UHGV virus genome: UHGV-0170512
Source of the DNA: a virus
Length of the DNA: 11,320 nt
Reading direction: 5' to 3' (one strand)
Position numbers and translations under genes: made by a program
The notes under the pieces: generated by a model
The model's database searches: none
The model's input: only the letters and a program-made list of their open reading frames with translations
What the model was told of the DNA's origin: nothing
In this document: positions 4,511-10,789 of the stretch, one piece after another
Layout of the letters: each line of letters opens with the position of its first letter
Position numbering within the stretch: the stretch's first letter is position 1

Positions 4511-4869
4511 TTATGATGATGCCGGTGCATTTATCTCCAGCGCCAGACTTTCTATCTCAACGCCATACGTTGCATTTTTGGTAATATCCGTCAGCGTCAG
4601 TGCATTTAGTCCCACTGCCAGACTGTCTTTTATGGCCTGGAATGCCGGGCCAGTACGATGACGTAGTATCACTCCGGCTCAGTTGCACCACTGACCACCA
4701 CATCACCTTCTGCTGCAATCGCCTGCATCAGGGTATAAGGGGTTATGGCCACCGGACTACCAAACGGCTGCCAGCCCTCTTTCAGTTTATGTGTCAGCTT
4801 TTCCGCAAGATCTGACGGCGGCGCCGCCCTGACAACATCATAGTGTTTAAATGCCATGGTTCTTTCCAC
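4511..4869 (-). pseudogene. DUF1737-like gene (NanS-p N-terminal-domain-like), apparently frameshifted/truncated
   Basis: Track ORF 4669..4869 (66 aa, MERTMAFKHYDVVRAAPPSDLAEKL...) stops at 4669-4671; a second stop-free frame of 55 codons ([55 protein letters not shown]) opens just after a stop at 4679-4681 and runs to 4511, overlapping the first frame in 4669-4678. Consistent with a single indel. The first Met may be the third residue (MAFKHYDVV). Confidence 0.35.
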
Positions 4870-5117
4870 TATCTGAAAAATAATTCTTTAAAATACCTGA
4901 CATGTAATACAGAAAAAACACAAAACTATACCTTAAATAAAAACCTGATTATCAAGCAGATATGCATGGATAAACTACAAGACGAGATATAAACCACCCT
5001 GCATTTAAATAAACAATAAACAACATCAGAAAAATAATTCTGCTCTATGGTTTACATTCAAAAATATCATTTATACTTTTCAGGACATCACCAGCAAGGC
5101 ATAAACAAGGAAACCAA

Positions 5118-5453
5118 ATGAAGTGGATTGTGATTGATACAGTTATCCAGCCATCATGCGGAATATCTTTTTCAGTCATATGGAGTAAAATAAAATTAAT
5201 AATCTGGTATCAATCGGATGCTTTCTTACCTCCTGAAAGTATATTTACACTGACTCACACAGGCATCATGCTCAATAACAAAGTGCTACCTGTAACCATT
5301 TACAACGTAGTACCATTCAATAAAACATTCTGGAATTTAATCAAAAACAGCCAGGAATGCCCTACAAATACAGATAACGTATTGAATGAATGCTTTAATA
5401 ACCGTTGCACTCTGCAAATATGTCCTTATGGACTAAAACAACAAAGTCCATAA
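5118..5453 (+). CDS. Hypothetical 111-aa protein, AT-rich convergent moron ORF
   Basis: Only credible plus-strand ORF in the window. Strong SD AAGGAA 7 nt upstream of the ATG at 5118, preceded by a ~250 bp very AT-rich stretch (4870-5117). Visibly lower GC than the phage backbone; 5 Cys; no recognisable family. Confidence 0.45.
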
Positions 5454-5487
5454 GGAGTTTACTCACATCTGACAAAATCAATATAAA

Positions 5488-5509
5488 CAGCCCCTCCGGA
5501 GAGGGGCTG
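5488..5509 (-). terminator. GC hairpin, likely Rho-independent terminator for minus-strand transcription (possibly also stops the convergent plus-strand ORF)
   Basis: CAGCCCCTC-CGGA-GAGGGGCTG, 9-bp perfect stem; on the minus strand it is followed by TTTATATTGATTTTG. On the plus strand it sits 35 nt after the 5118..5453 stop but has no U-tract. Confidence 0.4.
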
Positions 5510-5900
5510 GAGAGTGGCGCTATGTGCCATTGCATGGTGCCGGGTGCCTCCCGGTGAATTCAGTACCAGCACCTGAATCCGCGATTATCCCATATACCTA
5601 CTCGCTGATTGCCCCTCCGCACAGGGGGATTCACCATGCCAGTTTCTTTTAACAAACTCCCCGCAAACCAGACAACAGTCAACCGCCTGAATTGTGAAGT
5701 ATTTAAAAATTTCTCCCGCTAACTGATACCCGGCTAACAGTCTGGCGTTTTCTTTTTCAGCAACGGAAAAGCAACAACCACCACACCTGCCACCAGCACA
5801 CCGTCAGCCAGCACTGACATTATCCGGCTGCTGCAATGCCATTCACAAAAACAGTAAGCAATCACTTTTTACCGTAACAGGTGATAATCCAGATATGTAT

Positions 5901-6227
5901 CTACCCCAGATGAGTAATCCGAAGTTCATCCATACCACAGGTCCTGGCTATTCTGTTGTACTCCTGAACAAGAGCAAATAATTCTGAATTAGCAACCATG
6001 AACTCATCGCTAACCCTCTGTATAGCATCACTATTCAGAATAATAACGTCTCTTCCCGAAAGACGATCAGGAGTACAAAACAAAACTGTCAAACGGCTGA
6101 AGGCCTTTGCTCGTGCTGCATTGACTATATCAATACGCTGCCTAAGGATGAAACACCCCGACGCCTCATCAATATTCACTCTACCCACACCATATGAATG
6201 ATAAATATTTAATGCTGAAAAAACCAT
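5901..6227 (-). CDS. Hypothetical protein (108 aa from the internal ATG); doubtful
   Basis: Track ORF 5901..6254 starts at TTG; the first ATG is at 6227-6225 (MVFSALNIYH...) with a weak SD. No recognisable motifs; immediately downstream of the tRNA cluster. Confidence 0.25.
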   Translation of the reverse strand: MVFSALNIYHSYGVGRVNIDEASGCFILRQRIDIVNAARAKAFSRLTVLFCTPDRLSGRDVIILNSDAIQRVSDEFMVANSELFALVQEYNRIARTCGMDELRITHLG

Positions 6228-6364
6228 TAGACCGTATAACAAACACTCAATCAATACTTAACAGAACTTTTATTTTTGACAAACATATAATATTTTCAAC
6301 AATATCCTGAGCCAGGTATATTCCAGTATAAGGCTCTGCCGGAAGGAATCTGGAAGAATGAATA

Positions 6365-6441
6365 TGGCGCGTTGTACTGGATTCGAACCACTGACCGATT
6401 GCTTAGAAGGCAATTGCTCTGTCCTGCTGAGCTAACAACGC
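6365..6441 (-). tRNA. tRNA-Arg (anticodon UCU)
   Basis: Minus strand GCGTTGTTAGCTCAGCAGGACAGAGCAATTGCCTTCTAAGCAATCGGTCAGTGGTTCGAATCCAGTACAACGCGCCA: 7-bp acceptor stem, D arm GCTC/GAGC, anticodon loop CTTCTAA, T loop TTCGAAT, encoded CCA. One G:G mismatch in the T stem. Confidence 0.8.
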
Positions 6442-6454
6442 AGAATACCGATAA

Positions 6455-6531
6455 TGGACCACCATCGGGGACCCGAACTCCGCGCAACCAGCTTCGAAAG
6501 CTGGCGCTCTTTCCTGATGAGCTAATGGCGG
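6455..6531 (-). tRNA. tRNA-Arg (anticodon UCG)
   Basis: Minus strand CCGCCATTAGCTCATCAGGAAAGAGCGCCAGCTTTCGAAGCTGGTTGCGCGGAGTTCGGGTCCCCGATGGTGGTCCA: acceptor stem with one G:U pair, perfect anticodon stem CCAGC/GCTGG, loop TTTCGAA, encoded CCA. Non-canonical T loop TTCGGGT (G at position 58) and one A:C mismatch in the T stem. Confidence 0.7.
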
Positions 6532-6538
6532 TATGTGA

Positions 6539-6614
6539 TGGTGGCCCTTGCTGGATTTGAACCAGCGACCTGGCGATTATGAGTCGCTCGCTCTCACCAC
6601 TGAGCTAAAGGGCC
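6539..6614 (-). tRNA. tRNA with CAU anticodon (Ile2-type, ileX-like, or Met)
   Basis: Minus strand GGCCCTTTAGCTCAGTGGTGAGAGCGAGCGACTCATAATCGCCAGGTCGCTGGTTCAAATCCAGCAAGGGCCACCA: perfect acceptor and T stems, anticodon loop CTCATAA; closely resembles the E. coli ileX tRNA as I recall it. Confidence 0.85.
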
Positions 6615-6736: not shown

Positions 6737-7456
6737 TTAACGAACTCTGACTACATTAATTTCAAAGTCATCAATCTGCCCGCTATTAAGTATAACGAAT
6801 GCAGAACTCCCATTACTGTACGATTTCGATAAAACCAGACGATCATCATAGCGTGCAAGAACGTAATACCAAGTATTCTCATAGTGGATCGTCTGATATT
6901 CCCTCTTAAACTGGGGTTTATACCAACCGGCAATAAGAGAGAATGTCCAGAAATAAATCATGAATCCAGCCATAATAAACTCAATTCGGTGATGGCGAAT
7001 AAAAGACACTTCCGAAAAACATTTGACTGAAATAAGTCTTCTTCCTGACCTGACAAAAAGCGTAATTGTAAAGGCAGCAATAACACAAAAAAACAGCACA
7101 TCTGGCTCAACGTGCTGATGAATTACCGAAAACTCCAGAACAGGCGGAATAAAAAGCAGCAATATTGCCAGAAAAAGTCTGATAAAACTCAAATTCTGTA
7201 TATTGTTTTTTTGTTTTATGCCTAAAAAGAAAACAATACCTACTCCCCATCCAGTAAGGAATATAACGATAACGCTCACAGCATAAAACAAACTTCGGGC
7301 CACATCATCAACGCCAACCCCGACGATCCACCATGGAAAGCCATAGTAAAAGGAAGTCCCCCATCCATAGAAATAAGCGCTTCCCCATCCAAGACAGCCC
7401 ATATAAGCAATAAAAAGTGAAGAGTTCCTCAGCAGAGTGCTGTCATCCATACCCAT
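6737..7456 (-). CDS. Uncharacterised polytopic membrane protein (about 5 predicted TM helices plus ~60-aa C-terminal soluble tail)
   Basis: 239-aa ORF, first gene after the tR'-like terminator. Successive hydrophobic, aromatic-rich segments (FIAYMGCLGWGSAYFYGWG..., LFYAVSVIVIFLTGWGVGIVFFLGI, FIRLFLAILLLFIPPVLEF, VLFFCVIAAFTITLFV, IMAGFMIYFWTFSLIAGWY). Visibly AT-rich. Likely start is the second ATG (7450), with GAGAG 6 nt upstream. Confidence 0.6.
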   Translation of the reverse strand: MGMDDSTLLRNSSLFIAYMGCLGWGSAYFYGWGTSFYYGFPWWIVGVGVDDVARSLFYAVSVIVIFLTGWGVGIVFFLGIKQKNNIQNLSFIRLFLAILLLFIPPVLEFSVIHQHVEPDVLFFCVIAAFTITLFVRSGRRLISVKCFSEVSFIRHHRIEFIMAGFMIYFWTFSLIAGWYKPQFKREYQTIHYENTWYYVLARYDDRLVLSKSYSNGSSAFVILNSGQIDDFEINVVRVR

Positions 7457-7695: not shown

Positions 7696-8517
7696 CTATC
7701 GCGTTACCCTCTTTAACTGCCGCTCCGCCCATGCCTCTTCAATGTCAAACCGAACCACCAACGTATCGTAAAAGCGTTTCACTGATTTTTTCCACGTATC
7801 AAGCGTGATAGCACTCGTCACTTTGCGTATGGCATTAAATGCCTCCGTTGATGGTAGTCTTTCATAGCCCCGACCGCCACAACGCTGGCAGTTCCTGATT
7901 ACAGGCATACCCCGTTTTTCCGACTCTTCACGATGAATGGCAACACCACGCCCACGGCAGTCTTTACAGGCAGTGGAAATCTCCCCCTTCCCTTTACATT
8001 CAGGACAAGAAACTTTCACCACCTCCCGGATTTTTTTCCATTCTTCCCAGTAAGACGGATACACACCTTTCGTACACTTTGCCCATACCGGCGGCTTACC
8101 ATCCGGATACTGGACCTTGTTTGTAAAAACTACGCTTTCAATAAATTTTTCCCCATAGCAACAAGGGCACTGCTTTTTACTCGCTGCGCTGCGGGCATAA
8201 TCCTCAAAAGCGTACGAAGCCATAATGCGCATCACTACCGGTTTTATTTCTGCCGGAAGTTTTCTTAACGCCGCCACGCGATCGCACTGACTTAATGCAT
8301 AATCTGCCAGTAATTCTGTTGCCCGCGCCCTGTCATTCATACTAATACCCATTTTCCCCAGGAACGCAGAAAATCCCATCTCAGCCCGGTTTTGTGTCAT
8401 ACCCTGCGCAGCCATCACATCAGTGATGCTCAGCGCATCTTTTGACGTCGAGACGGATGCATCAGTCAGGCCTGGCGATTTTGGGGAATAGTATTTCGGT
8501 AAATCTTCCAGTCTCAT
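7696..8517 (-). CDS. Q-like late antiterminator (QuuQ-type, zinc-finger Cys pairs)
   Basis: 273-aa ORF with several CxxC pairs (CPCC, CPEC, CKDC, CQRC); positioned after rusA and before a promoter-terminator pair and the lysis genes, the canonical Q position. ATG overlaps the rusA stop (ATGA). Confidence 0.6.
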   Translation of the reverse strand: MRLEDLPKYYSPKSPGLTDASVSTSKDALSITDVMAAQGMTQNRAEMGFSAFLGKMGISMNDRARATELLADYALSQCDRVAALRKLPAEIKPVVMRIMASYAFEDYARSAASKKQCPCCYGEKFIESVVFTNKVQYPDGKPPVWAKCTKGVYPSYWEEWKKIREVVKVSCPECKGKGEISTACKDCRGRGVAIHREESEKRGMPVIRNCQRCGGRGYERLPSTEAFNAIRKVTSAITLDTWKKSVKRFYDTLVVRFDIEEAWAERQLKRVTR

Positions 8518-10397: not shown

Positions 10398-10553
10398 TTA
10401 CTCCTCAGGTTCGTAAGCTGTGAAGACAGCGACCTCCGTCTGGCCGGTTCGGATTCGTACCTCGCAGAGGTCTTTCCTCGTTACCAGTGCCGTCACTATG
10501 ACGGTTAAACAGATGACGATCAGGGCGATTAACATCGCCTTTTGCTGCTTCAT
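10398..10553 (-). CDS. hok: Hok-family type I toxin (HokD/RelF-like), 51 aa
   Basis: Hand-translated, below the ORF-track size cutoff: MKQQKAMLIALIVICLTVIVTALVTRKDLCEVRIRTGQTEVAVFTAYEPEE. Single TM segment and Hok/Gef signature; SD AGGAGAAG 6 nt upstream of the ATG. Confidence 0.85.
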   Translation of the reverse strand: MKQQKAMLIALIVICLTVIVTALVTRKDLCEVRIRTGQTEVAVFTAYEPEE

Positions 10554-10789
10554 AGCCTGCTTCTCCTTGACCTTTCGGTCCGTAAGAGGCTAATCTCTAT
10601 GTGTCGCATAGATATGGCCTCAGATTAATGTTAAGCGTCTTGCAGGACGCGTAATGTTAACTGGGGCTTTTCTCTATCTGCCTTTTGGTGTTCATGCCTG
10701 AGGCAGATAGCCTCAAGCACCCGCAGCAATTCTACTTAACTCACGTCACCTCGCCAATATGAAATCAATCAGAAAGGTGATCCATAAAA

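Follow-up and report, generated by a model that had tools for sequence, protein, structure and literature searches.

What is encoded by the GC-rich, hairpin-dense segment at positions 5510–5900 of an 11,320-nucleotide stretch of virus genome UHGV-0170512 (hereafter the window)? An earlier note, made from the sequence alone, had described this segment as noncoding DNA between two cargo open reading frames (ORFs), and had suggested that it was either a regulatory small RNA (sRNA) of a prophage late region or the decayed 3′ end of a lost gene. The compositional switch that it noted is real, with GC content rising from 0.355 at 5301–5500 to 0.545 at 5501–5700. We conclude, at a probability of roughly 85%, that a prophage sRNA gene of the STnc100 family occupies 5709..5479 on the minus strand, and that its allele is that of EcOnc05 in prophage Sp4 of Escherichia coli O157:H7 Sakai. 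Family membership, strand, compensated helices, terminator, synteny and identity to an Hfq-crosslinked, northern-visible allele are each shown by the analysis.

When the whole window was searched with cmscan, minus-strand positions 5668..5479 matched the Rfam family STnc100 (RF02076); the match covers the model in full (positions 1–206 of 206) and scores 132.4 bits, well over the gathering score of 47, with an E-value of 1.2e-29. A permissive Rfam scan of 4800–6400 at E ≤ 10 gave no credible family besides STnc100. STnc100 is a Gammaproteobacterial sRNA that PMC9029176 attributes to a Salmonella Hfq co-immunoprecipitation study (Sittka et al., 2008), the main text of which does not mention it. 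Both short stems quoted in the earlier note are present, CCGGG-TGCCT-CCCGG as helix P5 and CCCCT-CCGCAC-AGGGG as helix P2 (Table 1), and they cannot be put down to chance because both are consensus hairpins of the Rfam family. The window copy scores lower than copies located behind stx genes (158–208 bits) because its P3 is short and its tail is different. While the Rfam model begins at 5668, conservation across 100 unique homologues sets in at ~5709 and drops off past ~5482. The interval 5510–5900 therefore does contain a structured RNA, but its left edge cuts off the terminator and the module ends near 5709. The hairpin at 5488–5509, which had been placed outside the element, is in fact the terminator of the minus-strand RNA. 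The RNA is ~160–210 nt long and in three parts: a 5′ leader, a compact core and, at the 3′ end, a short single-stranded tail that leads into an intrinsic terminator.

The window sequence 5709..5489 is identical to the EcOnc05 locus at 218 of 221 positions (blastn). All three mismatches fall at the 5′ edge; from the TCACAAT box through the whole terminator stem the two loci are 100% identical. EcOnc05 was reported (Tree et al., 2014; PMC4104026) as an orphan peak at 1179806–1179914 (+) in crosslinking and analysis of cDNA with Hfq (Hfq-CRAC), and a band of ~222 nt was seen on northern blots. This peak corresponds to window positions 5607–5499, the 3′ half of the element. The northern probe (PMC4104026) corresponds to 5576–5610 on the plus strand and is therefore antisense to the minus-strand RNA. 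The suggestion of a late-region regulatory sRNA is thus borne out by a full-length STnc100 member that is identical in sequence to an Hfq-crosslinked, northern-detected RNA. Published STnc_100 quantitative PCR primers, used on vesicles of Shiga toxin-producing E. coli, also match the window exactly. Strain EDL933 transcribes eleven STnc100 copies, one being northern-positive, and in Salmonella LT2 a chromatin immunoprecipitation-exonuclease (ChIP-exo) signal for RpoD is reported at STnc100 copies. Our literature search did not find EcOnc05 by name in the main texts of papers. The two loci differ in their flanks: EcOnc05 in Sakai has the transfer RNA (tRNA) gene argO directly upstream, nanS-p downstream, a UUUCUU tail and a reported convergent sRNA (EcOnc08/21), whereas the window has a DUF3927 gene upstream, a convergent iraM downstream and an interrupted U-tract. 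An origin in enterohaemorrhagic E. coli (EHEC), as the earlier note implied, is not established; the window as a whole is matched best by strains from human extraintestinal sites, CFT073 among them, which has the window's sRNA allele at about 1,343,050–1,343,400 of its chromosome. The window is a mosaic, and none of the collection's complete genomes has more than 80% of it at a single place.

The minimum free energy (MFE) fold of the minus strand gives helices P1–P5 and the terminator, as does the Rfam consensus, and P1 is retained in 31 of 35 cores folded singly. An exact-pattern scan of IMG/VR yielded 120 loci, which with phage records and the window made 128 instances and 100 unique sequences; our survey of family diversity covers these phage and IMG/VR data. 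A degenerate 16-nt pattern run across genome contigs returned only chance matches, in unrelated phyla. Covariation was assessed on 35 distinct cores in a structure-naive MAFFT alignment, with the 3′ partners slid by 1–3 columns as controls. The structural covariation proposed as a check was found: 95.2% of cells were paired, compared with 39.7–48.1% in the slid controls, and the covariation score was 0.268 against 0.157 ± 0.007 in shuffles, none of 500 of which reached the observed value. Changes on both sides occurred in seven pairs, six of them in P4 (6/8 of its pairs). This set cannot inform on P5 or on the 3′ strand of P1, both of which the retrieval pattern held constant. P2 occurs in alternative forms, CCCCU/AGGGG or CCUUUC/GAAAGG. 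The strand can be assigned as minus because G-U and U-G pairs are frequent at several positions; pair 85–108, for example, is G-U in 25/35 sequences and would be an A-C mismatch on the other strand. Members in Klebsiella phages, found by blastn and scoring 81–88 bits in Rfam, show A-U to G-C changes in P1, while P5, the adjoining P1 strand and GGUGAAUCC remain invariant in sequence and the remainder has diverged. A pairing between leader and tail in the MFE fold (GGGGAGU/ACUCUCC) is lost when leaders and tails recombine and was not adopted.

The location of the element agrees between the window and other records. It lies on the late-transcription strand of a lambdoid prophage, in the moron zone upstream of the lysis cassette, with the minus-strand gene order Q (8517–7696), tRNA genes (6614–6365), DUF3927, sRNA and holin/lysozyme; the position between Q or a moron and nanS-p or holin recurs in phage and prophage records. 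Over 127 viral-contig instances, the nearest upstream gene is DUF3927 in 31, Q in 15, stx2B in six and stx1B in one, and the downstream neighbour is nanS-p in 51, a convergent iraM in 26 and holin in five. Of 5426 complete E. coli genomes, 2860 (53%) carry the family, at 7876 places and with up to 12 per genome.

Table 1. Features of the STnc100 locus and its immediate neighbours in the window.
Feature	Position	Strand	Basis or remark
Conserved sRNA module (leader, five-helix core, tail, terminator)	5482..5709	-	Conservation profile, 100 unique homologues
STnc100 match	5479..5668	-	cmscan, full-length model
5′ leader/promoter region, type L0	5640..5712	-	Columns invariant across upstream contexts
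Distal -10-like CACAAT	5691-5696	-	Behind A/T-rich block 5699-5712
Proximal TTGTCT, 18-nt spacer, TAAAAG	5670-5675, 5646-5651	-	Ends 6 nt before P1
Structured core, P1-P5	5532..5639	-	MFE fold, Rfam consensus and covariation
P1 closing helix	5632-5639 with 5532-5539	-	Closes junction of four hairpins
P2 hairpin	5612-5627	-	
P3, weak and variable	5581-5605	-	
P4 hairpin	5556-5580	-	
P5 hairpin (CCGGGAGGCACCCGG)	5540-5554	-	
3′ tail AAUGGCACAUAGCGCCACUCUCC, type T0, 22 nt	5510..5531	-	Between core and terminator; within Sakai Hfq-CRAC peak
Intrinsic terminator hairpin GCCCCUCUCCGGAGGGGC	5488..5509	-	9 pairs, 7 G-C; minus-strand terminator scan; in Rfam consensus
Interrupted U-rich tail UGUUUAUAUUG	5479-5487	-	3′ of terminator hairpin
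DUF3927 small protein gene, 43 aa, GTG start	5734-5865	-	Pfam PF13064; PHROG 1470 'TciB-like'; CFT073 annotation
IraM anti-adapter homologue	5118..5453	+	NCBIfam NF007393, 162 bits (cut-off 121)
42-aa mechanical ORF antisense to sRNA	5524..5652	+	Open reading frame only

In the lysogen, the RNA would be made from its own sigma-70 promoter and would stop at its own terminator. A U-rich run follows the hairpin on the minus strand only, with no T-run on the plus side. Hfq would bind via the tail and terminator, where the CRAC peaks of EcOnc05 and of EcOnc27 (the member downstream of stx2B) lie, and possibly also via the leader sequence AAAAGAAAC, which is also an A-R-N run. The RNA would act in trans, by pairing with its targets. 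Tail T0, one of 12 interchangeable tail types, holds an anti-Shine-Dalgarno-like CUCUCC; this exchangeable tail is a candidate Hfq-contact region and the likeliest candidate for the seed, while the conserved core would be a scaffold that stabilises the RNA or binds protein. The terminator may in addition shield the lysis genes from transcription until Q-modified polymerase reads through. Interruption of the U-tract (CUGUUUAUAUUGA) goes with an iraM neighbour, and in this iraM-linked variant it may weaken both termination and Hfq binding.

Several points weigh against an Hfq-dependent sRNA gene of this kind. Expression and Hfq binding of the window allele are known by proxy, through the identical Sakai sequence, and where other copies have UUUUUU behind the terminator this one has a broken U-tract (UGUUUAUAUUG). 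The minus strand folds with a z-score of -2.3 but the opposite strand does even better (-3.2), so folding energy by itself says little. A scaffold in which only the fold matters would not usually show the strict sequence invariance seen in P5 and GGUGAAUCC. A generic promoter scan found nothing upstream of the RNA, and its total count equalled the chance expectation. Promoter-consensus scores of the leaders are ~1 point above those of shuffles, 25% of which reach the median. Because such scans are weak or silent, our promoter calls are based on positional conservation and not on score. The proximal promoter predicts an RNA of ~159 nt, but the ~222-nt band of the identical allele fits a start at 5684–5700. 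In the start regions of 16 neighbouring genes in the window, pairing with tail or leader was no better than in shuffled sequences (158/200 and 152/200 shuffles were as good). No function has been demonstrated for STnc100 members beyond the effects of overexpressing EcOnc27, also named sRNA103.

Where the RNA begins bears on how it is made. In most of 53 distinct leaders, a -35-like TTGnCn, a spacer of 17–18 nt and a -10-like TAnnnn are found just before P1, with a clean TTGACC-N18-TAACTT in the group resembling coliphage HK639. This argues for the proximal promoter being ancestral and giving an RNA of ~159 nt. Farther from P1, the L0 block TCACAATTCAG..GTTGAC remains conserved whether the gene before it is stx2B, stx1B, Q, a tRNA or DUF3927. 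Northern sizes in Sakai run 8–11% above sequence-based lengths: EcOnc06 is predicted at 160 nt and observed at ~177, PasD at 173 nt compares with ~187 for EcOnc13, and EcOnc27, if started 7 nt past CACAAT, is predicted at 218 nt and observed at ~235. On the same scale the ~222-nt band of EcOnc05 corresponds to ~204 nt, and therefore to a start near 5684, just downstream of CACAAT. The major 5′ end of the window allele more likely lies within 5684–5700; the proximal promoter and processing at the A/U-rich left edge remain alternatives.

The last of these alternatives can be stated more broadly. The RNA could be cut from a longer transcript, such as the DUF3927 messenger RNA or a moron or late PR′ transcript, as a processed sRNA of the 3′ untranslated region type. 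Such an origin is compatible with an STnc100 sRNA, although we regard it as rather unlikely. It would fit the 65 nt that separate the end of the DUF3927 gene from the Rfam start here, the ~40 nt between a DUF3927 gene and each of PasD1 and PasD2, and the place of EcOnc06 just behind another. In Stx phages the element likewise starts 75 nt past stx2B, and the bands seen for EcOnc27 measure 235/247 nt. RNase E could find a suitable site in the A/U-rich AAAUUUUUAAAUA, where the conserved block has its left edge, CACAAT is not preceded by a convincing -35, and the ~222-nt band exceeds the proximal-promoter prediction. However, the same block stands directly behind tRNA, Q or stx genes, with no common upstream gene. 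A good TTGAC(C/T)-N17-18-TAnnnT promoter abuts P1 in HK639-like and PasD-like members, and RpoD occupancy is reported at the Salmonella copies.

In the 100 unique sequences, the conserved core is flanked by leaders of 13 types and tails of 12, and the window combination L0/T0 is the commonest pair. Leader L0 occurs with eight different tails and tail T0 with three leaders. One locus (L175) has the leader and core of the window but a different tail that starts right after P1, one Stx2a phage has the window's tail on another leader and a core variant, and PasD-type leaders or tails are found as hybrids on STnc100 cores. The STnc100 family looks like a conserved scaffold with exchangeable ends. 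We tentatively consider, as a possibility short of the likeliest, that it is a modular chassis, with an invariant core (P5 loop and GGUGAAUCC) that has a function of its own and onto which prophages recombine leaders and seed-terminator cassettes. If so, one scaffold would give rise to many regulators with different targets, while the core might, for example, bind a factor or protect the RNA. A common ancestry of PasD and STnc100 is proposed in a recent preprint, in the passages of which that were available cassette-like exchange is not described (Zhu, Shabalina and Storz, 2026). A conserved core with swappable ends also offers a handle on the partner of the core and on the target of each tail.

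In some phages, STnc100 elements were also observed as tandem pairs that differ in leader, P3/P4 variants and tail: at 1533–1744 and 1806–2019 of L004 and, as paired pattern matches, in the IMG/VR loci L140, L147, L154, L167 and L210 (484 nt apart) and in L195 (275 nt apart). The more distant members are those of Klebsiella phages (L254 1486–1681 and L255 1489–1675; 81–88 bits) and of HK639 (L252 2505–2710; 53 bits). They lie between Q and the lysis genes, TTGACC-N18-TAAnnT abuts P1, and P5 and GGUGAAUCC are unchanged.

The invariance of P5 (CCGGGAGGCACCCGG), the adjoining P1 strand and GGUGAAUCC in Klebsiella-phage members, while the rest diverges and leaders and tails are exchanged around the core, could mean that the core rather than the tail is the functional part. 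It might then be an RNA that binds or sponges a protein (ProQ, RNase E or another factor, for instance) or a cis module of the late transcript. We find this unlikely. PasD lacks P5 and is still an abundant Hfq-dependent sRNA whose contacts in RIL-seq, a method that ligates and sequences interacting RNAs, are in the 3′ region, tail and terminator lie under the Hfq peaks in both EcOnc05 and EcOnc27, and no Rfam family except STnc100 resembles the core.

Less likely again is that the element is mainly a cis-acting terminator or insulator for the lysis genes (and for the convergent iraM) in the lysogen, and that the free RNA is a by-product. The element always stands between the late promoter or morons and nanS-p or holin, the corresponding gap in HK639 has four annotated terminators of which one is the element's own, and in the window iraM shares the hairpin at its 3′ end. 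A hairpin of ~30 nt would suffice for such a role, however, whereas from E. coli to Klebsiella phages compensatory changes preserve a further ~110 nt of multi-helix core. The RNA also accumulates and is Hfq-bound, and tails are swapped among members while the terminator type is often kept. An sRNA gene whose terminator may also act in cis is the reading we retain.

The segment is not free of genes, as had been supposed. An ORF directly upstream of the sRNA on the same strand encodes a tiny DUF3927 membrane protein (95.6 bits to the Pfam family, cut-off 25, E 1.7e-27), and for this upstream third of the interval the statement that there is no convincing ORF was wrong. The DUF3927 product is 45–48% identical to DUF3927 proteins of enteropathogenic E. 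coli (EPEC) but lacks their N-terminal hydrophobic stretch. The gene ends 65 nt before the Rfam start. Comparable arrangements are found in Sakai Sp17, where the EcOnc06 copy lies directly behind a DUF3927 gene, and in EPEC E2348/69, where PasD1 and PasD2 begin ~40 nt past one. On the other side, iraM is convergent with the sRNA and its 3′ end is 35 nt from the shared hairpin. The IraM homologue is AT-rich (GC ~0.35) and a prophage moron. RefSeq, through the Prokaryotic Genome Annotation Pipeline (PGAP), places a partial pseudo "hypothetical protein" at 5524–5649 (+) and no noncoding RNA feature, and some phage records also annotate antisense ORFs over the element. The 42-aa plus-strand ORF is probably not a gene, and the antisense annotations probably reflect systematic mis-annotation of a GC-rich RNA gene. 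A very widespread family bears the RefSeq label "hypothetical protein" rather than that of a noncoding RNA.

We reject the remaining alternative, a decayed 3′ end of a protein-coding gene, since the mechanical ORFs of 40–50 aa on both strands, the PGAP pseudo-CDS and the antisense ORFs of phage records are outweighed by the absence of a Pfam family for the plus-strand 42-aa and minus-strand 40-aa ORFs (and of a PHROG for the former), by core lengths of 104, 108, 109, 113, 114, 117, 120 and 122–130 nt, which differ by non-multiples of three so that no reading frame is preserved, and by a full-length covariance-model match with substitutions that are compensatory for RNA helices.

Other features of the window are recorded here for completeness. 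Three tRNA genes with anticodons CAT, TCG and TCT lie at 6365–6614 (-), between Q and the sRNA. Their composition is that of the ileZ-argN-argO cluster of Sakai Sp4, and the CAT tRNA is called Met by ARAGORN and Ile by RefSeq. The ORFs at 5901–6254 (-) and 6737–7456 (-) match phrog_2873 (E 4e-69) and phrog_1521 (E 7e-86), respectively; their function is unassigned, neither has a Pfam or NCBIfam match, and the former is without annotation in CFT073 RefSeq. A sok antisense RNA (RF01794; 108 bits, gathering 59) adjoins a 51-aa hok-like ORF (10551–10722 (-) and 10398–10553 (-), respectively). In CFT073, hokD is annotated at the corresponding place, and the pair makes up a prophage-borne type I toxin-antitoxin module.

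Among characterised RNAs, PasD1 and PasD2 of EPEC E2348/69 share with the window element homologous helices P1, P2 and P4 and the GCAUGGUGAAUCC start, as well as the position, ~40 nt past DUF3927 and between Q and the lysis genes. Both are Hfq-dependent, and their RIL-seq partners contact the 3′ region (Pearl Mizrahi et al., 2021, PMC8550237; Zhu et al., 2026). The start of PasD1 in RNA sequencing is the first base of P1. PasD differs from the window element in lacking P5, in its TTGACT-N17-TTAAAA promoter and leader, in a tail with a UGUGAG seed, and in falling below the Rfam threshold. With P5, leader L0 and a T0 tail without UGUGAG, the window element does not have the PasD architecture.

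EcOnc27/sRNA103 belongs to the same family (208 bits) and agrees with the window element in leader class and in strand relation to late transcription. It differs in P3, in its T4 tail and terminator type, and in the abutting convergent AsxR. Its overexpression raised fimZ and espA according to later accounts of the original work (Gruber and Sperandio, 2015, as cited in PMC7873438 and PMC12711010). In the stx2-linked copy, variants immediately 5′ of P1, at +90 (T/C) and +103 (delT) after stx2B, have been associated with haemolytic uraemic syndrome (HUS; Paganini et al., 2025). These variants seem to lie within CATTTGTTAAAAAAATTTC, directly 5′ of P1 (L007, VT2-Sakai, ~1544 and 1556–1558, +90 being off by one), which is a putative proximal promoter and A-R-N run of that copy. 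No STnc100 member has a demonstrated target, though stx2-adjacent variants are linked to clinical outcome. In EHEC prophages, AsxR and AgvB (RF02703, RF02702) are found in the same intergenic gap, convergent with STnc100-type RNAs as their partners, but are unrelated in sequence, 51–60 nt long and on the opposite strand. No such partner was found in 4800–6400 at E ≤ 10, in a search whose positive control recovered AsxR in VT2-Sakai, and the convergent neighbour in the window is iraM.

Two other kinds of prophage RNA were considered and set aside. IpeX or another RNA of the K-12 prophage DLP12 was rejected, as the quuD-nmpC-essD region of MG1655 has no Rfam match. Lambda 6S RNA is the short terminated PR′-tR′ leader transcript, which Q-modified polymerase reads through. 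StxS is likewise a short PR′-tR′ leader RNA (PMC7873438). Such RNAs start directly after Q, whereas Q in the window (7696–8517) is more than 2 kb upstream of the element, with an ORF, three tRNAs and two ORFs between. HK639 has its own terminator and an isrJ-like element immediately behind Q, and its STnc100 member lies ~450 nt beyond them; a 6S-like leader RNA was rejected on these grounds. The isrJ-like element of HK639, right after Q at L252 2006–2078, is a near-threshold match (34.6 bits, gathering 37) that coincides with an annotated terminator, and it may be the PR′-tR′ leader RNA of that phage.

With STnc100 as defined by Rfam, the window element has in common all consensus helices, the terminator and the location in a prophage late region. 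It is of a known kind and a known allele: it belongs to a curated RNA family, and the same allele has previously been detected experimentally in EHEC.

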